Source of the DNA: Verrucomicrobiia bacterium
Lineage (GTDB): Bacteria; Patescibacteriota; Saccharimonadia; Saccharimonadales; JAGQNK01
Assembly: GCA_035489575.1 (NCBI GenBank)
Contig: DATHJY010000011.1
Coordinates: forward strand, 84,514 to 148,513
DNA: 64,000 bases
Direction: 5' to 3'
A model generated the notes under the pieces. That model was not told the origin of the DNA and searched no databases. It saw only the letters and a program-made list of their open reading frames with translations. Below, piece by piece: positions 3,194 to 49,631 of this stretch. Within the stretch, counting starts at the first letter, position 1; the number at the start of each line of letters is the position of its first letter. Position numbers and translations under genes: made by a program.

Positions 3194-3213
3194 GGTGTAT
3201 ACTGACTGACGAT

Positions 3214-4002: not shown

Positions 4003-4132
4003 TTTTCGCTCTTTTCAGAGCTCATCAGCGTGACTGGGATGGGTTCTTAAATATTCACGGAACTATTTTGCACCAGGAGGATACCCATCTGGGGATGCGC
4101 CGTATGCGCAGAGCCCCAGTGGACAGCAAGCT

Positions 4133-4624: not shown

Positions 4625-4675
4625 ATTATATCATATATATACAGATCCAGCAATGTAACCTTATACTGGTGACTG

Positions 4676-26200: not shown

Positions 26201-26884
26201 GGCCTACCCGAAGATGGCAAACAACGTTTGTTCGACGGCCGCACCGGTGACGCCTACAAAGAGCGCACTACTGTTGGCTCTATGTACATGATCAAGCTCA
26301 ACCACATGATTTCAGACAAGATCCACGCCCGCAGCACCGGACCATACACCATGGTTACGCAGCAGCCGCTTGGTGGTAAGGCACAAAACGGTGGACAGCG
26401 ATTTGGAGAGATGGAAGTCTGGGCCCTCGAAGCTTACGGCGCATCCCACACTCTTCAAGAAATGCTGACTATCAAGTCAGACGATGTCTACGGACGCTCC
26501 AAAGCCTACGAATCCATCATCAAGGGTACCGAGATTGTCGGTCCAAAAGTTCCCGAAAGCTTTAACGTACTCGTGAAAGAACTCCAGGGCCTAGGCCTCA
26601 AGGTCGACCTGATGAGCAGTAGCAAGGTCATCGACGCCGAGGACGTACTGGCCGAGAACATCAAGGACGAAGCCAGCAATCTGCCTCAGGTAGAAGTCCC
26701 CGCACCAAGCATTTCCGATGTTGATGTCACACAAGATGTCTCCGCCGACGAATTTGTCGTCATGGAATTAGAAGACGATATTCCTGCCACAACAGTCATT
26801 ACCGCAGATGATTCTGCGAACGATGACGACGATACCGCCATGATTGGAACAGACGATACCGACGATAAAGAGAAGGAGGCTTAA
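23300..26884 (+). CDS. rpoB: DNA-directed RNA polymerase subunit beta
   Basis: ORF 23213..26884. Start moved to the ATG giving MAKSSLSAKAALKKRTFF. Conserved RpoB blocks throughout. Unusual acidic C-terminal tail (...DDSANDDDDTAMIGTDDTDDKEKEA). Confidence 0.95.
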   Translation: MAKSSLSAKAALKKRTFFTKTDDVLDMPNLVDHQNRSFQWFIDEGLGELLAEISPIDDYTGTKLSLRFKDYRFEDPKTSELEARENNVSYEAPLKATVELTNKVTGEIKDQEIYLGDYPWMTARGTFVINGAERVVVSQLIRSAGVFFTADPHGTHNLYGAKVIPGRGAWLEFETAASGALYVKIDRKRKIAVTTLLRALGMSEAQIKDAFKHVDQGKLNYIDVTIDKDPARGNNDALIEVYRRLRPGDLATVDNARSLLENMFYNFKRFDFSRVGRYKINKRLNLDIANTTENRVMRIEDLVAIIAEIIRLNNSQEPADDIDSLANRRVKLVGELVQRQFRIGLLRMERNTKDRMSMSEIETVTPAQLINARPIVAAVREFFASSQLSQFMDQINPLSELAHKRRLSSMGPGGLSRERAGFEVRDAHATHYGRICAVETPEGANIGLVLNLATYARINEYGFIETPYRKVINALTAKDAVGYIAAINLDVDGKVVVKKGDKITAEAAKKLATVKGQITWPVKSKVTDKVLYLDASEEEQAVIASAGEEVDADGYFVNDRISARARLKAGEVDSDDVTHMDASRKQIIGSSAGLIPFIEKNYVYRSLMGSNQQRQAVPLVTPQAPIVGTGLESTAAHNSGQLIAAESDGEVVKAYGDEVIVKYKDQTVTYNPLHFVRSNEGSSINQKVVVNTGDKLKAGDPIIEGMSIADGELALGKDLVVAFMPWNGYNFEDAIILSRKLVEDDTLTSVHIVDFMVEVRETKLGPEIVTRDIPNVSEDALRHLDEDGIVRIGAEVHPGDILVGKITPKGEQELSSEERLLRAIFGEKAKEVRDTSQRMPNGKHGKVVGVKVFSRANGHELKAGVIMQIQVFVAQMRKISVGDKLGGRHGNKGVIARILPVEDMPFMEDGTPVDIILNPLGVPSRMNVGQLFETHLGMAARALGMKVASPSFNGVPTSKIHELLTEAGLPEDGKQRLFDGRTGDAYKERTTVGSMYMIKLNHMISDKIHARSTGPYTMVTQQPLGGKAQNGGQRFGEMEVWALEAYGASHTLQEMLTIKSDDVYGRSKAYESIIKGTEIVGPKVPESFNVLVKELQGLGLKVDLMSSSKVIDAEDVLAENIKDEASNLPQVEVPAPSISDVDVTQDVSADEFVVMELEDDIPATTVITADDSANDDDDTAMIGTDDTDDKEKEA

Positions 26885-26885
26885 C

Positions 26886-29800
26886 ATGAGACGCTATTCG
26901 TACGGTACTAACATTGCCGACTTCGACGCCGTTCGCCTAGCAGTTGCCAGCCCAGAAGATATTCTGGACTGGAGCTATGGCGAGGTAACAAAACCAGAAA
27001 CCATCAACTACCGTACCCAAAAGCCAGAACGCGACGGCTTGTTCTGCGAGCGCATCTTTGGACCGGTCAAAGACATTAATCCGCACGACGCAAAATACAA
27101 GGGCGTCCGCTCCCGCGAGGCTGCCGTAGACAAGAACGGCGAGATCGTTACCAAGAGCATTGTCCGCCGCGAGCGCATGGGCCATATCAACCTAGCCGCA
27201 CCGGTTGCGCACATCTGGTTCCTTCGTGGCACCCCAAGTGCCATCGGCCTGCTCCTAGGTATGACCGTCAAGAATCTCGAACGCATCGTGTACTTTGCCA
27301 GCTACGTCATTAAGTCTGTCGACATCGCCAAACGTGACCAATACCTGGTAGACAAAGAAGCTGAATTCTCAGCCGCCAAAGAAGCCATCAAGGTACGTTA
27401 CGAAAAAGAAGCTGAAAAAGAAGACGCCAACGTCAAAGCCTTGGCAGAGATGCAAACTAAAGAGCTCGACGAAGTCACCACCGAGTTTGAACAGCTCAAG
27501 ACGCAACTCACTGGACTCGAGAAGTACAGCCTCATCAACGAGACCGATTACCGCTCACTGCCAGACGAACTCCAAGATATGATCACCGTCGGCATGGGTG
27601 GCGCTTCGCTACGCGACCTGCTGGTAGAGATCGAGCTTACCAAGCTCATCCAAGAGCTCACCGCCGAAGCCGAAGACGCCAAGGGCCAACGCAAGAAGAA
27701 GCTTATGAAGCGCTTGCGCCTCCTAGAGAGCATGGAACGTGCTGGTATCAAACCCAGCAGCATGTGCGTATCAGTTCTGCCAGTCATTCCTCCAGACCTG
27801 CGCCCTATGGTGCAGCTAACTGGTGGCCGCTTTGCAACATCTGACCTGAACGACCTGTACCGCCGCGTCATCAACCGCAACAATCGCCTGAAGAAGCTGA
27901 TCGAGCTCAATGCTCCAGAAGTCATCCGCCGCAACGAACAGCGCATGCTTCAGGAAGCCGTTGACGCCCTGATAGACAATAACAACGCCCGCAGTGGCCG
28001 CGCCGTGGCCGCAACCGGTCAACGTCGTCGCCTGAAATCTTTGAGCGACATGCTCAAGGGTAAGCAGGGACGTTTCCGCCAGAACTTGTTGGGTAAGCGC
28101 GTGGACTACTCTGGTCGTTCGGTCATCGTGGCCGGTCCAGAGCTCAAGATTTTTGAGTGTGGTCTGCCAAAGATGATGGCCCTCGAACTCTTTAAGCCAT
28201 TCGTTATTGGCTATCTCATCCAGAACGAGCACGCCCACAACATCCGCTCTGCCACTCGTATGATCGAGACAGGCGAGATCGAAGTATGGGACGCCCTAGA
28301 CGAAGTCATTAAGGGCAAGTATGTGCTACTCAACCGCGCACCATCCTTGCACCGGCTATCTATCCAGGCCTTCCAACCTCGTTTGATCGAAGGTAAAGCT
28401 ATCCAGTTGCACCCCCTCGTCTGTAAAGGCTTTAACGCCGACTTCGACGGTGACCAGATGGCTGTGCACTTGCCACTGTCTGATGGTGCCCAAGAAGAAG
28501 CTCGCACTATCATGGCCAGCAACATGAACCTATTGAAACCTGCCGATGGTTCGCCAATCCTGCACATCGAACAAGATATCGTGCTTGGTTGTTACTACCT
28601 CACCTACGACCGTCCAGGTACCAGCAAGAAAGTTGCCAACTTTACCGGTATAGAAGAAGCCATCATGGCCCGCGACGCCGGCGTCATTACGCTCCAAAGC
28701 CGGGTCCACGTGTCTTTCCGTGGTGAAATGCGTGACACAACACTGGGACGCCTCTTCTTCAACGAGATTTTCCCCGACGACTTCCCGTTCCAAGACGAAG
28801 CCATGACCAAGAAGAAGCTCAACAACGTCCTAGCATTGGCTTACCAGAAGTACGGCCAAGCCAAGACTGCGGCTATTGCCGACGACCTAAAAGACCTAGG
28901 CTTTGAATTTGCTACCATGTCAGGTCTGTCTATGGGTATGAGTGACTTTAGCGACCTCAAAGGACTAGATGAACTGCTTGCCCAGGGCGAAAAGACCGCT
29001 GCTAAAGTTAGCGAACAGTACGAACAAGGCTTCATCACTGACGAAGAGCGTTACCGCCTGACCGTCGAAACCTGGACAGAAACTGACGCCAAGGTGCAAA
29101 AAGCTCTGACCGAGCAGTTTGCTACCGAGGACAGTTCTATGTCCATCGCCGTCGTATCTGGCGCCCGTGGTAACATCGGCCAGGTCAAGACCGCTGTCGG
29201 TATGCTTGGTCTTATGGTAGACGCTACTGGCCGTGCTATCGAGCTGCCGATTCGCTCCAACTATAAGGGTGGACTGACACCACTCGAATACTTTACCGCC
29301 ACCCGTGGTGCCCGTAAGGGTATGATCGACACCGCCCTCAAGACCGCTGACTCTGGTTATCTGACTCGTCGCTTGGTAGATGTATCGCAAGATGTCTTTA
29401 CTATCGACGAAGCCACCAGCGACGACGATCCCGGCTTTGCCCAATTCCGCTCAGACGCTGCCGAGATTGGCGTGAACTATGCCGTTCGCCTCGAGGGCCG
29501 ATTTGCTGCCGAGAAAATCCCCAAACTGCTGAAGCGTGGCGACCTCATTACCACCGAACTTGCTAAGACTATTGATGAAGACGAGTCTATTGACGGCGTC
29601 AAGATCATGAGCGCCCTGTCCAGCACATCAGTCCTGGGCGTCCCCCAAAAGTCTTACGGTCTCGACCCCGCAACCGGCGAACTAGTAGCCAACCACCATC
29701 CTGTTGGTGTCATCGCTGCCCAGTCTATCGGTGAGCCTGGTACCCAGCTGACGCTGCGTACCTTCCACTCCGGTGGTTCAGCTGTCGCAGACGACATTAC

Positions 29801-30698
29801 CCAAGGCTTGCCTCGCGTCGAAGAGCTGTTCGAAGTTCGCGCACCAAAGGGTCAGGCCTATCTGGCTGACATTGGTGGCATCACCAACACCTGGGAAGAG
29901 GGCGACCACTACGTTGTTCAGCTGACCGCCGACGATGCCGAACGTGTCGAGCTCCGCCTAGGCGAACGTAAAGCCCGTGTGGGCAGCGGAACCGATGTTG
30001 CTATCGGCGATGTCATTGCCTCACTCGAAGACAGCTCAGAGCCCATTACTGCACCAATCGCCGGCAAGGCAGAAGTTGCCAAGACCAAGATTGTAATTGT
30101 TCCAAGCAACCAAAGCGTCATGCGCTATGAAATCCCCGGCTTCAAGCAGCTAGTTGTCAAAGACGGCGACAAAGTAGTAGCCGGCCAGCGCCTGACCAAC
30201 GGTTCAATCAATCTGCACGAGCTCATGCGCCTGCAAGGTGTAGAAGCGACTCAGCGCTACATCATGAACGAAATCCTGCGCATCTTTGCCTCACAGGGCC
30301 AGAACATTGCTGACAAGCACCTAGAAATCATCGTGCGCCAGATGTTCAGCCGTGTACAGATCGAAGAAGCTGGTGACACCGAATTCGTAACTGGTGACGT
30401 CGTATCCAAGCTCGCTGCCGTACAAGCCAACGAAAGGCTCGTTAAGAAAAAGAAGCAGCCCGCCAAGTTCATCCAACTGCTCTTGGGTATCACCAAGGCC
30501 AGCCTGTCCACCGACTCATTCCTGAGCGCCGCTTCCTTCCAAGACACCACACGCGTCCTCATCGCTGCTGCTACCAGCGGCAAAATCGACCGCCTGTATG
30601 GCCTGAAGGAGAACGTTATCCTAGGTCGCCGCATCCCTGTGGGTACCGGCTACAACGCCGAGAAGCGAACCCGAGCCACCCAAGACGATGATCTCTAG
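26886..30698 (+). CDS. rpoC: DNA-directed RNA polymerase subunit beta'
   Basis: ORF 26844..30698. Start at the ATG after SD GAAGGAGG (MRRYSYGTNIADFD...). NADFDGD catalytic motif present. Confidence 0.95.
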   Translation: MRRYSYGTNIADFDAVRLAVASPEDILDWSYGEVTKPETINYRTQKPERDGLFCERIFGPVKDINPHDAKYKGVRSREAAVDKNGEIVTKSIVRRERMGHINLAAPVAHIWFLRGTPSAIGLLLGMTVKNLERIVYFASYVIKSVDIAKRDQYLVDKEAEFSAAKEAIKVRYEKEAEKEDANVKALAEMQTKELDEVTTEFEQLKTQLTGLEKYSLINETDYRSLPDELQDMITVGMGGASLRDLLVEIELTKLIQELTAEAEDAKGQRKKKLMKRLRLLESMERAGIKPSSMCVSVLPVIPPDLRPMVQLTGGRFATSDLNDLYRRVINRNNRLKKLIELNAPEVIRRNEQRMLQEAVDALIDNNNARSGRAVAATGQRRRLKSLSDMLKGKQGRFRQNLLGKRVDYSGRSVIVAGPELKIFECGLPKMMALELFKPFVIGYLIQNEHAHNIRSATRMIETGEIEVWDALDEVIKGKYVLLNRAPSLHRLSIQAFQPRLIEGKAIQLHPLVCKGFNADFDGDQMAVHLPLSDGAQEEARTIMASNMNLLKPADGSPILHIEQDIVLGCYYLTYDRPGTSKKVANFTGIEEAIMARDAGVITLQSRVHVSFRGEMRDTTLGRLFFNEIFPDDFPFQDEAMTKKKLNNVLALAYQKYGQAKTAAIADDLKDLGFEFATMSGLSMGMSDFSDLKGLDELLAQGEKTAAKVSEQYEQGFITDEERYRLTVETWTETDAKVQKALTEQFATEDSSMSIAVVSGARGNIGQVKTAVGMLGLMVDATGRAIELPIRSNYKGGLTPLEYFTATRGARKGMIDTALKTADSGYLTRRLVDVSQDVFTIDEATSDDDPGFAQFRSDAAEIGVNYAVRLEGRFAAEKIPKLLKRGDLITTELAKTIDEDESIDGVKIMSALSSTSVLGVPQKSYGLDPATGELVANHHPVGVIAAQSIGEPGTQLTLRTFHSGGSAVADDITQGLPRVEELFEVRAPKGQAYLADIGGITNTWEEGDHYVVQLTADDAERVELRLGERKARVGSGTDVAIGDVIASLEDSSEPITAPIAGKAEVAKTKIVIVPSNQSVMRYEIPGFKQLVVKDGDKVVAGQRLTNGSINLHELMRLQGVEATQRYIMNEILRIFASQGQNIADKHLEIIVRQMFSRVQIEEAGDTEFVTGDVVSKLAAVQANERLVKKKKQPAKFIQLLLGITKASLSTDSFLSAASFQDTTRVLIAAATSGKIDRLYGLKENVILGRRIPVGTGYNAEKRTRATQDDDL

Positions 30699-30806
30699 GC
30701 CTTGAAAGTACCGAGTAAATCTGTTAAAATTACATTACAAACCTAAGTGATCCGAGCTGTACGCGGCATACGTATACTGCGGTAGATCACATCTCTAAGG
30801 AGAGAT

Positions 30807-31220
30807 ATGCCAACAATTAATCAGTTAGTGCGCAAACCGCGCAAGGCTAAGACATCCAAGTCTAAGTCACCACACCTGCAACGTGTGGTCAACAACCTGA
30901 AGACCACCAACTACGAAAAGCCCGCCCCATTCAAACGCGGTGTCTGTGTCAAGGTAACCACCAAGACCCCTAAAAAGCCTAACTCTGCGCTTCGCAAAGT
31001 TGCCCGCGTTCGTCTGAACAACGGCTATGAAGTCTGGGCTTACATTGGCGGCGAAGGCCACAACCTACAAGAACACGCCGTAGTCATGGTTCGTGGTGGT
31101 CGCGTACCGGACCTTCCCGGTGTTCGTTACCACATTGTCCGCGGAACCCTAGACCTCCAGGGTGTCCAAAACCGCAAGAATGGCCGCAGCAAGTACGGCA
31201 CCAAGAAGGAGAGCAAGTAA
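30807..31220 (+). CDS. rpsL: 30S ribosomal protein uS12
   Basis: 137 aa; [13 protein letters not shown]. Confidence 0.97.
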
Positions 31221-31369
31221 TGTCTTTCGCAGCCTTAAGGGAAAAGAGCAGCCAGAACGCGGATTCATTCCGCGTCCTGCGCGATGAAACGGGGTCCCCG
31301 CAAAACCTGTTTTGTGGGGTACAGAAAAACCGCAAGGTTTGTCTCATTACTCCGAAGGAGAGCAAGTAA
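31220..31369 (+). CDS. Mini-ORF 1 of the junction element (49 aa: [49 protein letters not shown])
   Basis: The ATG overlaps the rpsL stop (TAATG). The frame stays open to TAA at 31367-31369, 1 nt before the rpsG ATG. Too short for the ORF track. Confidence 0.45.
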   Translation: MSFAALREKSSQNADSFRVLRDETGSPQNLFCGVQKNRKVCLITPKESK

Positions 31370-31370
31370 G
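31221..31370 (+). repeat. Junction-insertion element copy 1 (core 31238-31347, carrying a nested 36-nt hairpin insertion)
   Basis: Shares the core AGGGAAAAGAGCAGCC...GATGA..GAAAAACCGCAAGGTTTGTCTCAT with three other copies. Flanked by a perfect 16-bp direct repeat, GAAGGAGAGCAAGTAA (31205-31220 and 31354-31369). Confidence 0.85.
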
Positions 31371-31850
31371 ATGCCTCGTAAAGTTACCAAATCACTCGTT
31401 CGTCCTATCAACCCAGACCGTCTATACAACGACGTTATGGTCCAGCGCCTGATCAACCGTGTCATGCTGAATGGTAAAAAGCAATTGGCCGAGCGCCTGG
31501 TATATAACGGCATGCAAGAAGCAGCCGACACTCTCAAGGTCAAAAACCCTGTAGAGGTGTTTACCCAAGCTATGCAAAATGTTCGCCCCTCCATGGAGAC
31601 TCGTTCTCGTCGCGTAGGTGGTGCCAACTACCAGATTCCTTTCGAGGTTAAAGGTCAGCGCCAAAACCACCTGACTATGATGTGGTTCGTAGCCGCAGCC
31701 CGTGCCCGCAAAGGCATGAGCATGCAGAAGCGTCTCGCTCTAGAACTCGTTGACGCCTACAACAGCACCGGCGCAGCCGTTAAGAAAAAAGAAGACACCC
31801 ACAAAATGGCCGAGGCCAACCGCGCCTTTGCCCACTTTGCGCGGAGCTAA
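31371..31850 (+). CDS. rpsG: 30S ribosomal protein uS7
   Basis: ORF 31284..31850, trimmed to MPRKVTKSLVRPINPD... after SD GAAGGAG. Confidence 0.95.
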   Translation: MPRKVTKSLVRPINPDRLYNDVMVQRLINRVMLNGKKQLAERLVYNGMQEAADTLKVKNPVEVFTQAMQNVRPSMETRSRRVGGANYQIPFEVKGQRQNHLTMMWFVAAARARKGMSMQKRLALELVDAYNSTGAAVKKKEDTHKMAEANRAFAHFARS

Positions 31851-31851
31851 C

Positions 31852-32406
31852 ATGTCCGCAGAAGTTCGCACCGGAAAAAGTGTCGTCATAGATCAGCACA
31901 TTGGGCGGCCAGCTGGCAAGCGAGTGTCGCGCCGCCGTGCCTCCTTTGAAGATATTCACGCACACCTAGGTATCAGCCAGCCCGAAAGGAATCGGCTTGG
32001 TGGCCTTATTCAGCCCGGCGACGAATTTCTGCTATTCCTAAATGTAGGTCGCACTCGCAGGCGTACACCACCCGTCATGGGAGTGGGCGTTATCTTACGT
32101 GACCACCTGCAGGAAGGTGACGTAATCTTTAGTGGTGAAATCAAAGTGCCAAAATTAGGTGACCCCACCGAAGAACCAGAAACAAGGCAAGGCACCTTTC
32201 ATTTTGACCCAGAAATGGTAGATAGACTGAGTCGGGACGATTACACCAACGTACCGCTCGCCGCTCGCGGAGCGGCCGACCTCATTGCCACCCGTGTATT
32301 TCATCTCGACCCAGTAGATACCGAATTAGAAACAACGTATGACGCACTCCGAGCCAACGTAGAACCCATGAGCTGGGTCAATTTTCATGAGAGAGTATGG
32401 CCGTGA
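31852..32406 (+). CDS. Hypothetical protein inserted between rpsG and fusA
   Basis: ATG 1 nt after the rpsG stop (GGAGctaacATG). 184 aa (MSAEVRTGKSVVIDQH...) with no recognised domain. Confidence 0.55.
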   Translation: MSAEVRTGKSVVIDQHIGRPAGKRVSRRRASFEDIHAHLGISQPERNRLGGLIQPGDEFLLFLNVGRTRRRTPPVMGVGVILRDHLQEGDVIFSGEIKVPKLGDPTEEPETRQGTFHFDPEMVDRLSRDDYTNVPLAARGAADLIATRVFHLDPVDTELETTYDALRANVEPMSWVNFHERVWP

Positions 32407-32440
32407 AACAAAAGAACATAACGCTTAAGATAGGATAATT

Positions 32441-34528
32441 ATGGCAGCAAAAAAATACCCACTCGATAAGCTCCGCAACATTGGCATTATTGCTCATATT
32501 GACGCCGGCAAAACAACTACAACCGAAGGTATTCTGTACCGCACGGGGCTTAAGCACAAAATTGGTGCCGTTCATGAGGGCGAAACCACCACAGACTGGA
32601 TGGCTCAAGAGCGCGAGCGTGGTATTACTATTGTGTCTGCTGCCGTTACTTGCTACTGGAGAGATCACCAGATCAATATCATCGATACCCCGGGACACAT
32701 CGACTTTACCGTCGAGGTAGAACGTTCGTTGCGCGTTCTAGACGGTGCAGTTGTTGTCTTTGACGGCAAGATGGGCGTGGAATCTCAGTCAGAAACTGTC
32801 TGGCGCCAGGCTACCAAGTACGGTGTGCCTCGTGTCTGCTTTATCAACAAGATCAACCAAACTGGTGGCGATTTCTACAAATCACTCGACACCATTCATG
32901 CCCGCCTGAGCAAGCGCGCATTTCCCATCCACCTGCCTATCGGCTTTGAACAGTCTATTAACGGCATTATAGACCTGGTCAGTCAAAAGGCGTACACCTA
33001 CAAAGAATTCACCGACAAAGAACTTGTAGAAACCGAAGTCCCTGAAGACATGAAAGACAAGGTTGCCAAGTACCGCAGCCTCCTCATCGAAAACGCTGTC
33101 GCCGAAGACGAAGCCATACTCGAGAAGTTCTTCGAGGTTGGCGAAGAAGGTCTGAGTGAAGCTGATGTTAGGCAAGCTATCCGCACAGCCACGCTGGCGG
33201 GTGACTTTTATCCCGTCACTGGTGGCGACGGCCGTGGTGTTATCGTAGAAAAAGTCCTCGATATGGTGGTAGATATTTTGCCATCACCCCTCGACCGTGG
33301 CTCAACCTGGGGCACCCACCCCAAAACTGGTGACGAAATCGAGCGCAAGCCCGATGCTGACCAGCCCATGGCTGGTCTGGCGTTCAAGATCACCACCGAC
33401 CCATTTGTGGGTAAACTCGCTTACTTCCGTGTTTATTCCGGCAAGCTGATCGCTGGCTCTTACATACTGAACACTTCTACCGGCGAGAAAGAACGCGTAG
33501 GCCGCATCGTTCGTATGCAGGCCGACAAACGCGAAGACGTTACCGAAGTAGAAGCCGGTGACATTGCCGCTATCGTGGGCCTCAAGGGCACCACAACGGG
33601 TCACACCCTGGCAGATCCCAATAACCCAATCGTTCTCGAGAGCATCACCTTCCCAGAACCTCCCGTGTCTATCGCCATAGAGCCCAAGACCAAGTCTGAC
33701 CAAGAAAAGATGAGCCTAGCCCTACAGCGCCTGGCAGAAGAAGACCCCACTTTCCGTATCAGAGTAGACGACGAGACCGGCCAGACTATCATCTCCGGCA
33801 TGGGCGAGCTGCATCTGGAGATCCTAGTAGACCGCATGAAGCGCGAATTCTCCGTAGAGGCCAACATTGGTGCGCCACAAGTTGCCTACCGCGAAACCAT
33901 TCGCAAAGACGCCGTCGAGGCAGAGGGCAAGTTTATCCGCCAGAGTGGTGGTCGCGGGCAATACGGTCATGTATGGCTACGCCTCAGCCAGAACGAGGCC
34001 GGCAAAGGCTTTGAGTTCATCAACTCCATCAAGGGTGGTATTGTTCCCAATGAATACATCAAGCCCGTCCAAGAAGGTATCAAAGAAGCCATGAACAACG
34101 GCGTTATTGCCGGCTACCCCATGGTAGATATCAAGGCTGAGCTTTACGACGGCAGCTACCACGATGTTGACTCCAACGAAATGGCCTTCAAGATCGCCGG
34201 CAGTATGGGCCTCCAAGAAGGTGCCAAAAAAGCCAATCCCGTACTCCTAGAACCTGTCATGAAGGTCGTAGTCGTCACCCCTGAAGAATTCATGGGTGAC
34301 GTTATCGGAGACCTCAACAGCAAACGCGGACGCATAGAGTCCATGGAAGATCTCAGCGCCGGCATCAAAGAAATCACTGCATTTGTACCACTTGGCGAAA
34401 TGTTTGGTTACACTACCAACCTCCGCAGCAATACCCAAGGTCGCGCTAGTTCCAGCATGGAATTGGATCATTACGCTGACGTGCCAAGCCACGTAGCAGA
34501 AGCAATCGTTGCCAAAGCAGGGAAGTAA
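32441..34528 (+). CDS. fusA: Elongation factor G
   Basis: 695 aa; AHIDAGKTTTTE, DTPGHIDF. Confidence 0.97.
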   Translation: MAAKKYPLDKLRNIGIIAHIDAGKTTTTEGILYRTGLKHKIGAVHEGETTTDWMAQERERGITIVSAAVTCYWRDHQINIIDTPGHIDFTVEVERSLRVLDGAVVVFDGKMGVESQSETVWRQATKYGVPRVCFINKINQTGGDFYKSLDTIHARLSKRAFPIHLPIGFEQSINGIIDLVSQKAYTYKEFTDKELVETEVPEDMKDKVAKYRSLLIENAVAEDEAILEKFFEVGEEGLSEADVRQAIRTATLAGDFYPVTGGDGRGVIVEKVLDMVVDILPSPLDRGSTWGTHPKTGDEIERKPDADQPMAGLAFKITTDPFVGKLAYFRVYSGKLIAGSYILNTSTGEKERVGRIVRMQADKREDVTEVEAGDIAAIVGLKGTTTGHTLADPNNPIVLESITFPEPPVSIAIEPKTKSDQEKMSLALQRLAEEDPTFRIRVDDETGQTIISGMGELHLEILVDRMKREFSVEANIGAPQVAYRETIRKDAVEAEGKFIRQSGGRGQYGHVWLRLSQNEAGKGFEFINSIKGGIVPNEYIKPVQEGIKEAMNNGVIAGYPMVDIKAELYDGSYHDVDSNEMAFKIAGSMGLQEGAKKANPVLLEPVMKVVVVTPEEFMGDVIGDLNSKRGRIESMEDLSAGIKEITAFVPLGEMFGYTTNLRSNTQGRASSSMELDHYADVPSHVAEAIVAKAGK

Positions 34529-34530
34529 CC

Positions 34531-34761
34531 ATGGAATTTCCTGGACAAAGAGCGGCCGAAAGGCTCACAGATGCCATAAAAGAGCGAGCCCGGCAATGGT
34601 TCGTTAGGCTAGGCGACCAAGTGTTTGAAGCTATGATGGTTCCACCAAAAGACGACAACGAAATCGTGCCACAAGACCTGGCAGCGGCTGACGTGTGCCC
34701 TGACGAACCAGCCCCTCCAGAGGAAACACGCCGACCCGACCAACTCGCCAGCCGTTCGTAG
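34531..34761 (+). CDS. Small hypothetical ORF coupled to the fusA stop
   Basis: GGGAAGtaaccATG; 76 aa with an acidic, Pro-rich C-terminus. An antisense ORF of similar size also exists. Confidence 0.35.
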   Translation: MEFPGQRAAERLTDAIKERARQWFVRLGDQVFEAMMVPPKDDNEIVPQDLAAADVCPDEPAPPEETRRPDQLASRS

Positions 34762-34918
34762 GGGTAACTATCAAAATTCCAATCCACCCCGTTAGCACCT
34801 GCCCAAAGAGTCGCCCAAGCCTCTTTACAACTGGGGCGATATCAGATAAGATTATCCGGTAACTCGTGTGAGTTATCTATGCTCATGCAACTAATTAATT
34901 TTAAGGAGATCTACCTCT

Positions 34919-36103
<1,185 letters not shown>

Positions 36104-36152
36104 GTATCTCGCCCATTTGTCAGGGCGCATCGCGGGCAAAAACCTGCGACAG

Positions 36153-36187
36153 AAAAAGGAGCAGTACCATTTGTACAGCTCCTTTTT
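36153..36187 (+). terminator. Intrinsic terminator after tuf
   Basis: aaaaaggagc ... gctccttttt (10-bp stem, inner gtac/gtac). A-tract before and T-tract after, so potentially bidirectional. Confidence 0.65.
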
Positions 36188-36314
36188 CGTGCTCGGCCTT
36201 TGCTCCACGCTGCACTCCTGAAAATGCCCGAGCCATAGCGACTCACCCCAAAGATCCCTCAGCCAGAGAGAGTTTTCTTTTTGGTACATGCTTGGCGTAG
36301 AATTATTACATACT

Positions 36315-36734
36315 ATGAACGAAACCGGCGAAACGTCTGATAGCCCCGACCTCCTAGAGGTCAGTCCGCTCCCTATTCGCCGCAGGATTAGGCGCGCGCT
36401 GAGAGGTTCGGTGGAATTCTGCCCTCCTTGTCCCGCCAAAGGCTCGTGTGCGGGCAAAGTCACACCCCAGGTAGGAATTAGGCGGGCAAAAAACTCGTAT
36501 GACACCCCAGTAATACTTGCCGAGGTGATATTCACGGATAGAGATGGACTACGTAGTAAACCTAAAGTTGCTGGCATAGATCGGTTTGATGACGCCAAGT
36601 CCGAAGAGTTAGCATACCGACTCGAAAACCGAGTAGGTCGTTGTAACGGCCCCGCCGACGCTAACTGCCCAGCGCTTACCAACGACGCCATAAAACACTT
36701 AGCCGCAACCGTTATGGGTGACATAGACCAGTAG
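36315..36734 (+). CDS. Hypothetical Cys-containing protein between tuf and rpsJ
   Basis: Part of ORF 36288..36734 (MNETGETSD...CPPCPAKGSC...). No SD and an uncertain start. The opposite-strand 239-aa ORF was rejected. Confidence 0.35.
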   Translation: MNETGETSDSPDLLEVSPLPIRRRIRRALRGSVEFCPPCPAKGSCAGKVTPQVGIRRAKNSYDTPVILAEVIFTDRDGLRSKPKVAGIDRFDDAKSEELAYRLENRVGRCNGPADANCPALTNDAIKHLAATVMGDIDQ

Positions 36735-36860
36735 GCACCTTCCATTTCCGGCATAAATGTTGTAAAATCATATCTATAAACTAATTGTGATGACTAAAAG
36801 TCGTTGTGCATGCTCTCTTATAGCAGTTCAAAGATGTTACATCACCAAGGAGATAGTTCT

Positions 36861-37226
36861 ATGGCTGAAGCCAAGAAACCAGCAGCAAAGACTGCTGCTA
36901 AAAAAACCGAAGCACCCGCTGGCAAACAACGTATTCGTATTCGCCTAAAGGCCTACGACCATAAAGTAATCGACCAATCTGCCAAGCAGATCGTTGACAC
37001 CGCCCTGCGTACCGGCGCCACCATTGCCGGCCCGATCCCACTGCCTACCAAGAAGACGCTTTACACCGTTGTCAAAAGCCCGCACGTCTACAAAAAAGGA
37101 CGTGAGCAATTCGAGATGCGCGTACACAAACGCCTTATCGACGTCCTAGAGCCCACCCCCAAGACCATCGACAGCCTCATGAACTTGAGCCTGCCAGCTG
37201 GTTGCGACGCCGAAATTAAGATGTAA
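36861..37226 (+). CDS. rpsJ: 30S ribosomal protein uS10 (with Lys/Ala-rich N-terminal extension)
   Basis: ORF 36804..37226, trimmed to the ATG after [24 protein letters not shown]. Confidence 0.92.
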
Positions 37227-37263
37227 CATTCGTTGCATAAATAGTTATTTTATGCTATAATAT

Positions 37264-37292
37264 GTACCTCTGTGAATAGCAGAGGTACTTTT
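37264..37292 (+). terminator. Intrinsic terminator directly after rpsJ
   Basis: gtacctctg tgaatag cagaggtac followed by tttt. It separates rpsJ from rplC. Confidence 0.6.
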
Positions 37293-37321
37293 ATATGTCA
37301 GTACCAGAGAAGGGTGTTTGA

Positions 37322-37368
37322 TGCGAGGAGCAAGTCTTGCCGTTTGGCAGCAAGGCTTGCTCCTCGCA
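37322..37368 (+). other. Perfect 13-bp stem hairpin upstream of the high-GC ORF
   Basis: tgcgaggagcaag ... cttgctcctcgca with a structured 21-nt loop. It lies 42 nt before the GTG start at 37411. Confidence 0.5.
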
Positions 37369-37410
37369 TCGACCGCAACTTGTCCCATTCGACCAGACCA
37401 AGGAGGCCTT

Positions 37411-38040
37411 GTGCCTGCTACCTCCACCGTCCCCGACAGCGGTGAACTCCTGGACGGAGACTTCTGCTACGAACTCGTCCGACCGGGCTGCTACAACGTC
37501 TACAGCAACAACGCGGAGCTAGACCTCGGCAAGCTCTTCCCCCAAGGCTTCCACGGTGAAGTCAATCTTGGCATGGAAGGTGTGCACTGGGCAATCGGCG
37601 TCAAGCGTGAAGCTCGAAACCCGGCCCACCTCTGTGCCCAGATCCTGCCGGCTCACCGAGGCACCAGCATGCAGATCCTGACCAACGCCGCACGCGTCCT
37701 GCGCGAAGCGTTCTGGCCGACCGACCTCCCAGATCACACCCCCGTCCGGGCGACGAACGTTGCCGACCACAGGCGTGTGCCGCTGAACCTCGGCGAGGTC
37801 CAAGTGGGCATGAAGGTCTGCACCCGCGGCAGCATCCAAGTGCACGGCATCGTGGCCGAGATCGGACACGATGACGATGGCCGAGACGCCGTGTGCCTCT
37901 CCAGATCACCGTACATCGCCCACTTCGAGGACCCCCAGGGACGCAGGTGGTATTATGCCGACCTAATGGGGCTTGTCCCACGCCACGCCGGCACCAACCG
38001 TGCCCACTGGGACCCTCGCAGCTACACCCTTCCGGACTGA
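37411..38040 (+). CDS. High-GC hypothetical protein, family member 1 (shared C-terminal motif)
   Basis: Start is aAGGAGGccttGTG. Codon third positions are mostly G/C. C-terminus: YADLMGLVPRHAGTNRAHWDPRSYTLPD. The ORF-track start at 37318 would read through the upstream hairpin. Confidence 0.6.
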   Translation: MPATSTVPDSGELLDGDFCYELVRPGCYNVYSNNAELDLGKLFPQGFHGEVNLGMEGVHWAIGVKREARNPAHLCAQILPAHRGTSMQILTNAARVLREAFWPTDLPDHTPVRATNVADHRRVPLNLGEVQVGMKVCTRGSIQVHGIVAEIGHDDDGRDAVCLSRSPYIAHFEDPQGRRWYYADLMGLVPRHAGTNRAHWDPRSYTLPD

Positions 38041-38047
38041 CAGCGTG

Positions 38048-38092
38048 TCATCATGGTGGCCATCCACACCCTGGCTCTGGCCACCATGATGA
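38048..38092 (+). repeat. Conserved palindrome H1 (TCATCATGGTGGCCA / TGGCCACCATGATGA)
   Basis: 15-bp perfect stem with a 15-nt loop, starting 7 nt after the stop of 37411-38040. Confidence 0.8.
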
Positions 38093-38130
38093 CACAACAA
38101 TTTACTTATATGATCATGTACAATACGCTT

Positions 38131-38403
38131 ATGGCCTCAAAAACAAAAAAGAAACAAACCTCACAGGAATTAGACAGCATTTATATCCTCAAACTTGTGG
38201 TGTATCTGGTGCTTGGGTCGCTCTGGCTCAAAATAACCGACGGGCAAGACACTCAGATACCTATTCCTATCGGCTTTTTCATCGGCCTGGTATTTGCCAG
38301 TCATGACCACATTCAGCTGGATCGCAAGATTGGGTATGCCGTACTGCTCGTGGCCATGCTCATTGGCTTTTGGGCACCGTTTGGCGTCTACGTTGCCACA
38401 TAA
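38131..38403 (+). CDS. Small membrane protein
   Basis: Part of ORF 38053..38403. Start placed after the palindrome (MASKTKKKQTSQ...). Two or three hydrophobic helices. Start uncertain. Confidence 0.45.
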   Translation: MASKTKKKQTSQELDSIYILKLVVYLVLGSLWLKITDGQDTQIPIPIGFFIGLVFASHDHIQLDRKIGYAVLLVAMLIGFWAPFGVYVAT

Positions 38404-38597
38404 TTCGTAGTGGAATTATCAACACATTGACAGAGGTTAGCAAACTATGCTAATCTGTAGCGGTATATCAAAAGTTCCCGGACTTGGTGAGTGGCATAGG
38501 TCTGCCCCTAACAGAGGTAGAAACCAGCCAACACCAAGCGTTTTTGTGTCACGCATTCGTGACACTTAAGGGAATTAAATAACAAGTAAGGTTTGCT

Positions 38598-39212
38598 ATG
38601 AAAGCTCTTATCACCAGAAAGGTTGGCATGACCAGTACCATCGCAGAAGATGGCGTAGTTCAAGCCGTTACCTTGCTTTCCGCTAGTCCCTGTGTCATTA
38701 CGCAGGTGAAGACCGAGGAAACTGACGGCTATACAGCTGTTCAGCTCGGCACCGAAGAAAACAAAGCCATGGGCAAGGCCCAGGCTGGTCACTTCAAACC
38801 ATCAAAGGTACAGCCAAAGCTCGTGCGCGAATTCCGCATTGCAGAGGTTGATGAAAGTATCAAAGTCGGCGAGAGCATCTCGGCCGACATTTTTGAAGTT
38901 GGGGACATCGTAACTGTCACCGGCACCAGCAAAGGTAAAGGCTGGGCTGGTACCATCAAGCGTCACAACTTTCATCGGCAGCGCAAAACACACGGTGGCA
39001 AAGGCGATACCCGCAAGCCCGGTTCTATTGGCTCTATGTATCCGCAGCACATCCTGAAAGGCAAGAAAATGGCCGGACAGATGGGCGCAGAGCAAGTAAC
39101 TGTTCAGAATTTGCGGGTTGCTTTGGTAGACACCGACCTTGGTGTTATTGGTGTAACCGGCGCTGTTCCAGGCCCACGCAAGGGCATTGTCCTTATCAAG
39201 GAGGCAAAATAA
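38598..39212 (+). CDS. rplC: 50S ribosomal protein uL3
   Basis: 204 aa; KGKGWAGTIKRHNF. Confidence 0.95.
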   Translation: MKALITRKVGMTSTIAEDGVVQAVTLLSASPCVITQVKTEETDGYTAVQLGTEENKAMGKAQAGHFKPSKVQPKLVREFRIAEVDESIKVGESISADIFEVGDIVTVTGTSKGKGWAGTIKRHNFHRQRKTHGGKGDTRKPGSIGSMYPQHILKGKKMAGQMGAEQVTVQNLRVALVDTDLGVIGVTGAVPGPRKGIVLIKEAK

Positions 39213-47084: not shown

Positions 47085-47558
47085 ATGAAGTACAACGAAT
47101 TAAACCTAACCAAAAAGCGCAGCCCCAAGCGAGTGGGACGCGGCATCGCAGCTGGACAGGGTAAGACTGCCGGTCGGGGAACCAAGGGCCAAGGCGCTCG
47201 CAAGAGCGGTGGTGTTCGCCCCGGATTTGAAGGTGGCCAGACACCCCTTACTAAGCGACTGCCTAAGTTGCCTGGCTTTACGTCTCACCGACCAAAGGTC
47301 GAGAACGTCTATACCGGCCAACTCGAAGCTTTTGCGGGCAAAACCGCTGACAACTTTACGGTCGCAGAAGCTGGCTTAACCACCAGCCCCTACGTCAAAG
47401 TAAAGCTGATAGTCCAGGGCGACATTACCAAGAAAGTTACCGTCAAACTCCAGGGTGCCAGCGAGAGCGCCATTGCAGCCGTCCAAAAAGCCGGTGGTAG
47501 CTTTGACAAAGTGCCGCAAGTAAAACGTCAGCCAAAAGAAAAGCCAGAAACCAAGTAG
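47085..47558 (+). CDS. rplO: 50S ribosomal protein uL15
   Basis: 157 aa; GRGIAAGQGKTAGRGTKGQ. No bL30 gene between rpsE and rplO. Confidence 0.94.
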   Translation: MKYNELNLTKKRSPKRVGRGIAAGQGKTAGRGTKGQGARKSGGVRPGFEGGQTPLTKRLPKLPGFTSHRPKVENVYTGQLEAFAGKTADNFTVAEAGLTTSPYVKVKLIVQGDITKKVTVKLQGASESAIAAVQKAGGSFDKVPQVKRQPKEKPETK

Positions 47559-47625: not shown

Positions 47626-49461
47626 ATGAGCAATAAGACCCAAAAAAAGCGCGACAAACATATTACGCGCGAGATACATCGTTTGTTCTGGAGGCACACC
47701 CTCAACAACCCGCTTCGGCTTGTTCTGGGTATGTCCGGACGATTCCCGGCTTTTATGACAACACACCTCTTGATGCCGCTGGTTGTTGCCAACGCCCTGC
47801 AGGCCATCATCGAGAGGCAATTTGACAGTATTACTGGCTATGCGTACCAGCTGCTTCTACTGGCAGCCATCTTCTCGGTCCTGTGGGCCATCAGTAACTA
47901 CCTGGTTATTGGAACAGTTGCCAGGGCTGGCAGGAACATACAAAGAGAAGTATTTGCCAACTTCCTACACAAAGATTATGACTTTTATGCCAATACCTAT
48001 TTTGGCGCATTGGGCGATCAAGCCTCGCGTCTGCGCGAAGCATTTATCGGTGACTACTGCGGCGTTTTCCTTTTGGCCGTTCCTAAGCAACTGGTAGTCA
48101 TAGTCGGAGGGATTGTGGTGATTGCAACCAAATCACCACTTCTAGCGCTCGTAACGCTGGGAGCTATGGCGTCAGTATTAGGATTTACCATGCTTACCAG
48201 CAGTATGCGTATAAAGTGGCGCCGAAAGGTCAGCGAAGAAAGTAGCGCTATCGCTGCCAAACTTGGTGATGCGCTAACACAAGCGCCGGCCGTAAAAAGC
48301 TTTGCCTCAGAAGATTACGAAAGTAAAAGGCTTGATCACAACCTTAACCTCTGGGAACGTGCTCAGTTTACTGCATGGATGTCCTCTGTACCCGCAGATG
48401 CCGGACGTTATTTCTTGGTTGCTCTTGCCACAGCCATTCTGCTGGTTATGACCGGTCGTATGTACCGGGATGGTGCTATATCGATTGCCATCGTCGCTCT
48501 TGTGCAACTATACGTCGTAAAAATGGTTGCAGCCACGATTGATATCAATGACATTATCAAATCTTATGAATCTGCTGTAGGTGGTGCATACCAGCCTATA
48601 AAAACCATGCTGATACAGCCTACCATCGTAGACAGCGCAAAGCCGGATAAGTTACCAAGACGAGCCAAATACCCCGTTACCCTTCAGTCCGTGTCATATA
48701 AATATGACAATACAGCCAAAGACGCAGTAGCGGTGCGTGATTTTACATTAGACATTGCCCCTGGCGAGAAAGTAGGGCTGGTTGGCTTTTCTGGCAGCGG
48801 CAAAACAACACTGACCAAACTGCTACTTCGATTCATGGACATCACGAGCGGCAGCATTGCCATAGCCGGCAAAGACATTCGGTCTATCGCCCAAAAAGAC
48901 CTACGTCGCCATATATCATACGTACCACAGGAACCGTTACTGTTCCACCGAAGCATTGCCGAAAACATTGCCTACAGCAAACCTACTGCTAGCAATAAAG
49001 AGCTAAAACACGCCGCTAAAATGGCCTACGTCACGGAGTTCATAGAAGAGCTGCCCGAGCGGTACAACACCTTAGTTGGCGAGCGGGGAGTCAAATTGTC
49101 TGGTGGCCAACGCCAGCGCGTGGCCATAGCCCGTGCCATTCTAAAAGACGCCCCCATCCTGGTCCTGGACGAAGCCACCAGTGCTCTAGACAGTCGCAGT
49201 GAACAACTCATTCAAAAAGCTCTATGGAGTCTTATGGAAGACCGGACCGCCTTAGTGATCGCTCACCGGCTCAGCACCATTCAGCGCATGGACCGCATTG
49301 TGGTTATGGATAAGGGCAAGGTGGTCCAAGTTGGTACGCACAGGGAACTCCTAAGAGACAAGAAGGGCATATATGCCGAATTGTGGGCACACCAAAGCGG
49401 TGGCTACATTGGGGTACCGGCTGAACCAGAGGATGATGTAGGTGCCATATCTGTTGCATAG
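47626..49461 (+). CDS. ABC transporter, fused permease/ATPase (MsbA-like exporter)
   Basis: 611 aa. Six-helix TMD, Walker A GFSGSGKTT, signature LSGGQRQR, Walker B ILVLDEATS. Confidence 0.88.
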   Translation: MSNKTQKKRDKHITREIHRLFWRHTLNNPLRLVLGMSGRFPAFMTTHLLMPLVVANALQAIIERQFDSITGYAYQLLLLAAIFSVLWAISNYLVIGTVARAGRNIQREVFANFLHKDYDFYANTYFGALGDQASRLREAFIGDYCGVFLLAVPKQLVVIVGGIVVIATKSPLLALVTLGAMASVLGFTMLTSSMRIKWRRKVSEESSAIAAKLGDALTQAPAVKSFASEDYESKRLDHNLNLWERAQFTAWMSSVPADAGRYFLVALATAILLVMTGRMYRDGAISIAIVALVQLYVVKMVAATIDINDIIKSYESAVGGAYQPIKTMLIQPTIVDSAKPDKLPRRAKYPVTLQSVSYKYDNTAKDAVAVRDFTLDIAPGEKVGLVGFSGSGKTTLTKLLLRFMDITSGSIAIAGKDIRSIAQKDLRRHISYVPQEPLLFHRSIAENIAYSKPTASNKELKHAAKMAYVTEFIEELPERYNTLVGERGVKLSGGQRQRVAIARAILKDAPILVLDEATSALDSRSEQLIQKALWSLMEDRTALVIAHRLSTIQRMDRIVVMDKGKVVQVGTHRELLRDKKGIYAELWAHQSGGYIGVPAEPEDDVGAISVA

Positions 49462-49565
49462 AGCCCACCTCATGGTAATTTTTGAGACTGAAAGCTGATG
49501 ATTTTTAAGCGAAACCAGCAAAAAATGGCAGTTTTCTGGCCAAAATATTGCCTTGGGGTGGGCTC
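49461..49565. repeat. Long-range inverted repeat between the ABC transporter gene and secY
   Basis: gagcccacctcatgg (49461-49475) pairs with ccttggggtgggctc (49551-49565) over 15 positions (1 mismatch, 1 G-U), enclosing about 75 nt of AT-rich sequence. Confidence 0.45.
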
Positions 49566-49631
49566 CGAATAACACGTCATGTATACTGGAGTGAGTTTAC
49601 ACAAAACAACCGGAGAATCTTTGGGAAACAC

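Follow-up and report, generated by a model that had tools for sequence, protein, structure and literature searches.

The genes from rpsL to rplC in the 64-kb stretch of DNA analysed here (the window) are separated at four junctions by additional, non-ribosomal open reading frames (ORFs): ORF184 between rpsG and fusA, ORF76 between fusA and tuf, ORF148 between tuf and rpsJ, and ORF209 and ORF90 between rpsJ and rplC. We consider it probable that these four fixed junctions are permissive slots, which carry real, fast-evolving and mostly species-specific genes and lie between separately signalled units. Most of the pattern would be explained if the supercluster is split into units under separate control and its passenger genes turn over and diverge rapidly. 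The unusual features are a hypervariable slot inside the rpsG-fusA operon, the detachment of rpsJ, and undescribed covarying leaders before rpsJ and rplC. An initial annotation of the window had described the ORFs as insertions into a normally tight gene order. All elements that it listed are present (Table 1), and the arrangement is identical in a 10-kb Joint Genome Institute (JGI) contig, L081, which was assembled independently and excludes a mis-assembly.

Four junctions of the ribosomal protein cluster are expanded

For comparison with the window, 80 loci that contain fusA were taken from species-representative genomes and 80 that contain rpsJ from metagenomes; they are referred to here by L numbers. 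Core genes were placed by tblastn, and gap statistics were taken from the Saccharibacteria-like loci, roughly 40-75 for each junction. The median gap amounts to 358 nt between rpsG and fusA (range -1 to 5727), 513 nt between fusA and tuf (106 to 4615), 298 nt between tuf and rpsJ (0 to 2308), and 1256 nt between rpsJ and rplC (171 to 4814; 52 loci). Spacers in the window measure 590 nt for rpsG-fusA, 390 nt for fusA-tuf and 1371 nt for rpsJ-rplC. The median rpsL-rpsG gap is 2 nt, and the six junctions from rplC to rpsC span -1 to 9 nt. Synteny across the relatives therefore singles out the same four junctions as expanded and hypervariable, with fixed flanks and differing content that is enriched over the neighbouring ribosomal protein intervals, as in a turnover hotspot flanked by core genes.

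Neither the window nor the clade medians show the canonical str organisation, in which rpsL-rpsG-fusA-tuf are contiguous with short spacers. The canonical S10 organisation, with rpsJ first and rplC directly next to it, is likewise not found; the gap between the two genes holds a terminator, two genes, and a separate rplC promoter and leader. The initial annotation had described the order as interrupted at every step. Four junctions are indeed expanded, but three of them are boundaries between separately promoted units.

The slots are not occupied everywhere. Some junctions are tight or empty in L007, L012, L015, L018 and L126, and the smallest rpsJ-rplC gaps (171-225 nt, seven loci) consist of the promoter and leader alone. 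Independent gene calls on three closer relatives gave a similar layout with other genes in the slots; the order in L167, for example, is rpsG-(104 aa)-fusA-(93)-tuf-(168)-rpsJ-(89)-rplC. Greedy picking of ORFs of at least 50 aa within the gaps yielded 293 slot ORFs, which fall into 237 families with 211 singletons.

Among the slots, rpsG-fusA has a character of its own. Its ORFs lie almost exclusively on the plus strand (40/42), cover 90% of the gap and are mostly singletons (37/42). In 19 of 31 loci the ORF begins no more than 5 nt from the rpsG stop, and in 24 of 31 its end lies at most 24 nt from the fusA start, so the tight abutment noticed initially for the window ORF is the rule across the clade, at both ends. 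The other three slots have 24-32% of their ORFs on the minus strand. When small plus-strand singletons were pooled, the frequency of G at codon position 1 was 0.34-0.38 and the share of D+E 11.5-14%. These values match those of core genes (0.38 and 12.5%) and differ from those of spurious ORFs inside core genes (0.25 and 4.9%), indicating that the singletons carry the signature of true genes.

When 90 ORFs of the rpsG-fusA and fusA-tuf slots were scanned against Pfam, matches were obtained to ordinary, mutually unrelated families: PALP with chorismate mutase (CM_2), glycosyltransferases, alpha-amylase, an ABC ATPase, Mur ligase, NUDIX and CDP-alcohol phosphatidyltransferase. Two further matches were a GIY-YIG gene (L005, fusA-tuf) and a gene similar to 23S rRNA intervening sequence (IVS)/bAvd genes (23S_rRNA_IVP; L010, rpsG-fusA). 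Judged from the few members that match these families, most of the small slot ORFs appear to have no domain.

Many small slot proteins contain paired cysteines, with CxxC or Cx3-6C near the N-terminus and a second pair near the C-terminus. Examples are the rpsG-fusA ORFs of L004, L005, L009, L011, L013, L025 and L167, and the window ORF at 36411-36734. These proteins share no sequence homology. The share of cysteine residues is 2.5% for rpsG-fusA slot ORFs, 1.3-1.4% for those of the remaining slots and 0.4% for core genes.

Small unannotated ORFs (37-109 aa) were also called at rplB-rpsS, rpsC-rplP and rplX-rplE of relatives, within the S10 and spc operons (L166 11936-12265 and 13566-13685; L167 15083-15196 and 3204-3329). 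The rplB-rpsS gap reaches 300-328 nt in about 10% of loci. At 80-285 nt in about 20% of relatives, the rpsL-rpsG gap is a possible fifth slot.

The window ORFs and their closest relatives

Database entries for the window's EF-G, EF-Tu and L3 belong to a metagenome-assembled genome named "Verrucomicrobiae bacterium" (HTE58091-HTE58099, locus tags VK694_). Nearly all of the closest EF-G relatives (83-89% identity) bear the name Candidatus Saccharibacteria or Saccharimonadales. Because EF-G and all ribosomal protein neighbours point to Saccharibacteria, the window is, by protein similarity, part of a Saccharimonadales genome from the candidate phyla radiation (CPR/Patescibacteria) despite its NCBI label, and the name Verrucomicrobiae probably reflects an error in taxonomic assignment. 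Sample SRR33471251 supplied the nearest relative (contigs L082 and L083), whose EF-G shares 97% identity with that of the window at a synonymous divergence of about 0.8.

Codon log-odds were derived from 23 long window genes, and the resulting model scored all five ORFs as coding in the annotated frame only (ORF184 +0.28, ORF76 +0.20, ORF148 +0.08, ORF209 +0.24, ORF90 +0.36), and the GC content at codon position 1 exceeds that at position 2 in each. Every one of them has a homolog in the matching slot of the nearest relative, with an amino acid identity of 56-57% for ORF184 and ORF76, 44-45% for ORF148, 71% for ORF209 and 89% for ORF90. The ratio of nonsynonymous to synonymous divergence (dN/dS) in this comparison is 0.13 for ORF184, 0.19 for ORF76, 0.33 for ORF148, 0.46 for ORF209 and 0.06 for ORF90, and 0.01-0.04 for fusA, rpsJ and rplC; the nonsynonymous proportion (pN) of the slot ORFs ranges from 0.16 to 0.37 and the synonymous proportion (pS) from 0.31 to 0.72. 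Given the frame-specific coding score, the orthologs in the same slots and dN/dS values of 0.06-0.46, the five ORFs are, by these measures, real genes. The concern that they might lack a coding signal was not borne out. Amino acid change in the orphans is 20-30 times faster than in the adjacent genes (dN 0.3-0.5 versus 0.01-0.02).

No meaningful domain or relative of the five ORFs was found in Pfam, PHROGs, PADLOC, NCBIfam or PDB sequences. An exhaustive HMMER search recovered three homologs of ORF184, at 57%, 30% and 35% identity: one directly upstream of fusA in L083, one between rpsG and fusA in L085, and one in L084, a contig too short to place it. A fourth match, to a repeat protein, was regarded as spurious. 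A word-indexed search of 5.8 billion proteins returned no homolog of ORF184, a metagenome scan with its alignment found nothing, and neither did scans of viral contigs with the ORF184 and ORF209 alignments. Homologs of ORF76 and ORF148 were seen in the nearest relative only, an 80-aa ortholog of ORF76 at the same position in L083 and a 109-aa homolog of ORF148 in the matching slot of L082, where the protein is kept although the DNA is unalignable. An antisense ORF of 239 aa that overlaps ORF148 (36035-36754) was rejected as a gene on its coding score of -0.27.

ORF209 has two homologs (71% and 65% identity), both located inside rpsJ-rplC and conserved over the C-terminal two-thirds. Its GC content is 0.64 (0.62-0.66 along the ORF) compared with about 0.52 for the genome, and its GC content at third codon positions (GC3) is 0.78 compared with about 0.55. 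The synonymous divergence of ORF209 from L082 is 0.40, half that of fusA and rpsJ (0.80). Its GC3 and synonymous divergence hint that the segment is of foreign origin or was exchanged more recently. A longer form of 240 aa (start 37318) was rejected; its upstream part is a non-coding hairpin, and 209 aa is the correct length.

The initial annotation had allowed that the ORFs might be conserved members of the operon throughout the phylum rather than insertions. This holds for ORF90, which lies inside the rpsJ-rplC gap in 29/52 loci and has at least 98 homologous protein clusters (85-95 aa); all of them carry the label hypothetical, and those with a named source come from Saccharibacteria. On this distribution, ORF90 is a conserved lineage-specific member of the junction. 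ORF184, ORF76, ORF148 and ORF209, on the other hand, occur only in the closest relatives. A 116-aa form of ORF90 (start 38053) was rejected in favour of the 90-aa form, since a 1-nt indel relative to L082 falls in 38053-38130, which is non-coding.

Probable replacement, loss and divergence of slot genes

To rank the loci by kinship, identity over S12, S7 and residues 1-200 of EF-G was used. The core identity to the window is 91.3% for L167, 88.5% for L139, 87.4% for L001 and 86.3% for L085; L025 and L003 are also closer than L085. The ORF184 family is kept in recognisable form in L085, and the closer L167, L139, L001, L025 and L003 have unrelated ORFs in its place. A hidden Markov model of the family matched none of the other slot ORFs, and in a sensitive all-against-all BLASTP of slot ORFs, apart from a few close pairs, weak similarities did not exceed those of shuffled controls.

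Whole genes differ even from the nearest relative. Two genes of its contig L082 are missing from the window: a 308-aa ORF (L082 1538-2464) located between the ORF148 homolog and rpsJ, and a minus-strand gene (L082 4125-4598) located between ORF90 and the rplC promoter. In the window, the ORF90 stop is followed after only 8 nt by the stretch in common with L082 that lies upstream of the rplC promoter. A related JGI contig (P0015) has a 135-aa minus-strand gene with a weak DUF3592 hit at the ORF90-rplC position, and the minus-strand gene of L082 looks DUF3592-like, judged by position and by eye. Owing to the patchy occurrence of ORF184 relative to kinship and to the whole-gene differences from the nearest relative, the slot contents seem to have been replaced and lost, not only diverged, with very fast divergence adding to their orphan look.

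An alternative is that each slot holds one ancient, vertically inherited gene, the homology of which has been erased by fast evolution, and that nothing was inserted or replaced. The orthologs in the nearest relative have already dropped to 44-71% identity, and slot ORFs are alike in size, orientation and acidic composition across genomes, with paired-cysteine patterns and raised cysteine content in many rpsG-fusA ORFs, as this alternative would predict. It does not account for an ORF184 family that is detectable in L085 (32-35% identity) yet absent from closer relatives, nor for the unrelated Pfam families that the same slots hold (PALP+CM_2, glycosyltransferases, amylase, Mur ligase, GIY-YIG, 23S_rRNA_IVP). 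The empty slots of the five loci named above, the level of weak similarity, which does not rise above that of shuffled sequences, and the presence or absence of whole genes in the nearest relative also speak against it. We regard this alternative as unlikely.

Several points nevertheless weigh against a reading of the junctions as slots with gene turnover. Percent identity is not a phylogeny, and the patchy distribution of ORF184 could reflect losses. As the orphans evolve so much faster than their neighbours, some apparent replacement could be divergence past detection. Recombination breakpoints and donor sequences were not identified. Slot variability was compared with that of neighbouring ribosomal protein junctions only. 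The AlphaFold2 models of the ORF184 family (four sequences, pLDDT 36.6) and the ORF209 family (three sequences, 49.9) were too poor for a fold search, and the promoters, terminators and translational coupling are all deduced from sequence. Furthermore, in terms of homology ORF184, ORF76, ORF148 and ORF209 are fast-evolving orphans of the closest relatives that were inherited and not recently inserted. The idea of a preferred landing site, put forward in the initial annotation, thus finds support across the clade but not in this genome, in which all five ORFs are shared with the nearest relative at the same positions.

Sequence elements around ORF209

Two hairpins bracket ORF209. The upstream one is nearly invariant in L082, and the downstream palindrome is kept there within a 94% identical block, with a 1-nt indel in the loop. 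Because the flanking blocks are 93-94% identical to L082 and the ORF209 protein only 71%, both hairpins appear to be under constraint. They are unrelated to each other and each is unique within the window. A repeat family similar to repetitive extragenic palindromes or miniature inverted-repeat elements (REP/MITE-like) was rejected on the latter ground. An attC-type pair, as in an integron cassette, was rejected as well, the two hairpins being unrelated and no motif being common to the slots. The annotated genes of the surrounding region include no recombinase; the search for intI did not extend to the whole genome.

These elements bear on the possibility of a dedicated mobile-element mechanism, either integron-like cassettes with hairpin recombination sites or free-standing homing-endonuclease genes that target conserved neighbours. 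Such a mechanism could draw on the GIY-YIG gene and the 23S rRNA IVS/bAvd-like gene in slots of relatives, on the high GC content of ORF209 and its two 51-nt hairpins, which are better conserved than the gene, and on the frequent insertions in CPR rRNA genes (PMC9297842). The five window ORFs, however, have no nuclease domain (GIY-YIG, HNH or LAGLIDADG) in Pfam, PHROGs, PADLOC or NCBIfam, and no integrase or other domain. The lack of kinship between the hairpins, their uniqueness in the window, the missing boundary motif and the empty viral-contig scans add to this, and much of the cargo in relatives consists of ordinary metabolic genes. We therefore judge a dedicated mechanism to be improbable.

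It is very improbable that the ORFs are non-functional, as chance or annotation artefacts in expanded spacers or as frames kept open so that ribosomes travel on to fusA: homologs in only a handful of relatives, the lack of domains, the weak coding score of ORF148 and a 49-aa ORF in rpsL-rpsG that is indeed better explained as structured RNA would fit, but the coding signal is frame-specific, pN lies far below pS, the ORF148 family is kept as protein where the DNA no longer aligns, and the chance of a plus-strand ORF of 100-180 codons filling the gap in 33 genomes is negligible.

Transcription signals and leader RNAs

Judged by its signals, the Saccharimonadales region from rpsL to rplC is a row of units, rpsL-rpsG-X-fusA-X, tuf-X, rpsJ-X and a unit that begins with rplC (X marking slot content), and not one tight super-operon. 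Promoter-like sites within 200 nt upstream are found at 82% of loci for tuf, 50% for rpsL, 35% for rplC, 31% for rpsJ, 5% for fusA, 3% for rpsS, and 0% for rpsG, rplD and rplB; in the case of rplC, the conserved TAATCT -10 element is additionally captured in the leader covariance model R1. A hairpin with a T-run follows within 110 nt downstream of tuf in 55% (78 loci), of rpsJ in 44% (86 loci), of fusA in 18%, of rplC and rpsG in 5% each, of rplD in 2%, and of rpsL and rplB in 0%. Upstream of fusA there is no conserved motif, and the slot ORF reaches the fusA Shine-Dalgarno sequence. The tuf promoter (TTTACA-N17-TATACT/TATAAT) is conserved in 82-97% of 61 loci, and the short leader behind it is also conserved by eye. 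Published work gives independent support: in Saccharibacteria, reporter and resistance genes have been expressed from TM7x control elements, namely the promoter and terminator of tuf and the promoter of rpsJ (PMC10187176).

The terminator behind rpsJ has a G+C hairpin and a U-run 3' of the gene, as expected from sequence for an intrinsic terminator. With its conserved leader and this terminator, rpsJ seems to form a unit of its own, in line with the isolation proposed initially. A promoter-like site directly precedes the hairpin. The block of both is about 93% identical to L082, and the hairpin is kept there through a C-to-T change that gives a G-U pair. A transcript that starts at the usual distance from the -10 element of this site would begin in the 5' arm of the hairpin and so could not form it. 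In this way the hairpin might stop rpsJ transcripts and spare those from the promoter-like site. The series that follows, made up of hairpin, high-GC ORF, palindrome, small membrane ORF and leader, is present as first described, with 194 nt between ORF90 and rplC.

The rplC leader folds into four nested helices, with a closing helix CTTGGTG/CACCAAG and a U-run behind it. Covariance model R1 matched a single site in each of 46 loci, in every case immediately upstream of rplC, and matched nothing outside Saccharibacteria. In the alignment, which was fitted to the model, 86.7% of cells are paired compared with 28-47% in slid controls, double (compensatory) changes occur at 16/20 pairs, and the observed values were reached in 0/500 shuffles. 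The end of the leader looks like an attenuator, which makes it a candidate for a new ribosomal protein attenuator (L4 or L3?). For the rpsJ leader, RNAalifold on 27 loci predicted 16 pairs, nine of which have compensatory changes; other loci such as L110, L112 and L122 contain the variant GAGAACTCG...GAGGTTACGGCAC. Both leaders are thus conserved, covarying structures in the 5' untranslated region (UTR), as in known ribosomal protein leaders. Searches of Rfam 15 yielded no leader match, even with permissive filters on short stretches, and only chance-level hits with E >1, far below the gathering score.

Covariation was counted formally for the rpsJ and rplC leaders, and the rpsL and tuf leaders were judged by eye. 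Upstream of rpsL, the motif AAGCAATCCGAGCC...GCAGATTGCA recurs in relatives. The leader hairpin, which can also be written AAGYRATCCGAGCC...GCAGATYRC, is conserved after the promoter, and changes in its stem compensate each other by eye (GTGATC/GATCAC versus GCAATC/GATTGC). The rpsL-rpsG spacer holds a conserved structured RNA, the motif of which is common to L003 and L167, with an extra hairpin in the window; it also occurs upstream of tuf in L006 (~2760-2864) and L010 (~10700-10799). It is possibly an S7 operator. A 49-aa ORF that fills this spacer was rejected as a gene in favour of the structured RNA. Gene callers annotate ORFs of 41-64 aa over the motif.

Table 1 Features of the rpsL-to-rplC region and of a neighbouring insertion, in window positions.
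Feature	Position	Strand	Remarks
rpoC	26844-30698		
rpsL promoter-like site and 5' leader hairpin	30702-30806	+	TTGAAA-17-TAAAAT with TG; GTGATCCGAGC...GGTAGATCAC
rpsL	30807-31220		
rpsL-rpsG spacer, conserved structured RNA	31221-31370	+	GGGAAAAGAGCAGCC...GCGCGATGAGAAAAACCG.AGGTTTGTCTCATTA
rpsG (S7)	31371-31850	+	Pfam Ribosomal_S7, E 2.5e-54; TAA stop ends at 31850
ORF184	31852-32406	+	184 aa; fills the rpsG-fusA slot; ATG at 31852, 1 nt after rpsG; 34 nt before the fusA ATG
fusA (EF-G)	32441-34528	+	
ORF76	34531-34761	+	Small orphan, 76 aa; ATG at 34531, 2 nt past the fusA stop
tuf promoter and short leader	34824-34918	+	TTTACA-17-TAAGAT; promoter at 34824-34852
tuf (EF-Tu)	34919-36103	+	
Terminator-like hairpin and T-run after tuf	36152-36191	+	Imperfect hairpin, approximate ends; dG -13.0 kcal/mol
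ORF148/139	36288/36315-36734	+	Cys-containing orphan; start 36288, 36315 or GTG 36411; conserved core 36411-36734, from V42 (possible GTG start at 36411)
rpsJ leader RNA	36780-36855	+	Long hairpin, invariant TGACTAAAAGTCG / GATGTTACA, covarying stems
rpsJ (S10)	36861-37226	+	Pfam Ribosomal_S10, E 1.3e-35
Promoter-like site	37233-37261	+	TTGCAT-17-TGcTATAAT; directly after the rpsJ stop
rpsJ intrinsic terminator (predicted)	37264-37292	+	10-bp stem, 5-nt loop (hairpin 37264-37288), then TTTTAT; dG -15.4 kcal/mol
51-nt hairpin	37320-37370	+	21-nt arms; 5' region of ORF209
ORF209	37411-38040	+	High-GC orphan; GTG start behind AAGGAGG Shine-Dalgarno sequence
Perfect palindrome	38045-38095		18-nt arms; between ORF209 and ORF90
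ORF90	38131-38403	+	Membrane protein of ~90 aa, Saccharibacteria-wide, without family assignment
rplC promoter	38427-38456	+	TTGACA-18-TGcTAATCT
rplC leader RNA	within 38427-38597	+	Covariance-model match 38449-38558, ~110 nt
rplC (L3)	38598-39212	+	First gene of the tight rplC-rplD-rplW-rplB-rpsS-rplV-rpsC string
rplO	47085-47558		
ABC exporter	47626-49461		611 aa; ABC_membrane + ABC_tran
secY	49548-51128		SecY 526 aa; Pfam domain begins at residue 105 only

Farther downstream in the window, an ABC exporter lies between rplO and secY, a place that normally belongs to the spc operon, and the Pfam domain of the SecY encoded next to it covers the protein from residue 105 only (Table 1).

A model of slots between transcription units

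In the reading that we favour, the space from the last core gene of a unit to the next promoter would be a permissive slot, in which lineage-specific genes are gained, replaced and lost. The slots are apparently tolerated since tuf, rpsJ and rplC each have a promoter and a leader RNA of their own. Insertion at three of the junctions would be harmless downstream because these junctions precede the next unit's own promoter. This follows the known logic of operon junctions, where an insertion is neutral only if it falls behind the final gene of one operon and ahead of the promoter that serves the following one (Brandis et al., PMC6735719).

The rpsG-fusA junction would be the one slot within an operon. 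It takes almost only co-oriented, terminator-free, gap-filling ORFs, presumably because anything else would cut off fusA expression. ORF184 and ORF76 would probably be expressed through co-transcription and tight translational abutment with rpsG and fusA, and such abutting ORFs may reach the high expression that the initial annotation had predicted. ORF148 and ORF209 would probably depend on weak promoters of their own or on terminator read-through. Turnover probably proceeds by the uptake of DNA through natural transformation and its homologous recombination with the ultra-conserved genes on either side; natural competence is known in Saccharibacteria, which integrate cassettes with flanks down to 221 bp (PMC10187176).

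Relation to known systems and implications

The arrangement resembles the bfd-bfr-hopD genes between str and S10 in Salmonella, in that non-ribosomal, non-mobile genes lie between translation operons. The ybaC gene between tufA and rpsJ in Bacillus subtilis is presumably a similar case. In contrast to such junction genes, four junctions are affected here throughout a clade, two of which (rpsG-fusA and rpsJ-rplC) lie inside canonical operons, the contents change in almost every species and are mostly orphans, and rpsJ is split from the S10 operon with its own leader and terminator.

A second likeness is to horizontal-transfer hotspots flanked by core genes, a concept reportedly introduced by Oliveira et al. 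in 2017. Both have constant core flanks and differing accessory content that is concentrated in few intervals. However, the slots described here are very small (usually 1-3 genes), lie in the most conserved gene cluster and are mostly free of mobile-element genes. The insertions in CPR rRNA genes (Brown et al. 2015; Tsurumaki et al. 2022, PMC9297842) are also lineage-variable and affect translation genes, but they lie within RNA genes and are spliced or processed out, whereas the slots hold separate protein genes between ribosomal protein and elongation factor genes. Finally, the rplC and rpsJ leaders share the feature of 5' UTR structure with the E. coli S10 leader, which acts through L4-mediated attenuation and translational control, and with other ribosomal protein leaders (Fu et al. 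2013, PMC3616713; Eckert & Weinberg 2020, PMC7247131). They differ from the S10 leader in that the structured leader with attenuator-like features precedes rplC and not rpsJ, and in the lack of an Rfam 15 match.

A bolder extension, which we hold to be doubtful, is that the rpsG-fusA slot, and the others to a lesser degree, serves as a gene nursery. DNA that lands or arises in it would automatically be transcribed and translated, at EF-G-like levels, and new species-specific proteins, small and acidic or with cysteine pairs, would originate in the slot or be recruited to it unusually often. If the undescribed leader RNAs, at least two in number (rpsJ and rplC), are added, the regulation of core translation genes would have been rewired in a CPR-specific way. 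If so, some slot proteins may act on the ribosome, on EF-G or on the interaction between epibiont and host.

The string from rpsL to rplC is among the most conserved gene orders in bacteria and serves as a phylogenetic marker block for CPR genomes, and the slots mark places where CPR binning or synteny-based annotation can fail. The rplC and rpsJ leaders are candidates for new ribosomal protein regulatory RNAs, none of which is described in Rfam for the phylum. The slots and the control regions of tuf, rpsJ and rplC would be natural candidates for expression sites in the newly tractable Saccharibacteria. As a whole, the slots may be seen as a natural experiment on what a highly expressed operon tolerates, and would offer a ready set of young or fast-evolving genes in which to study the origin of orphan genes.

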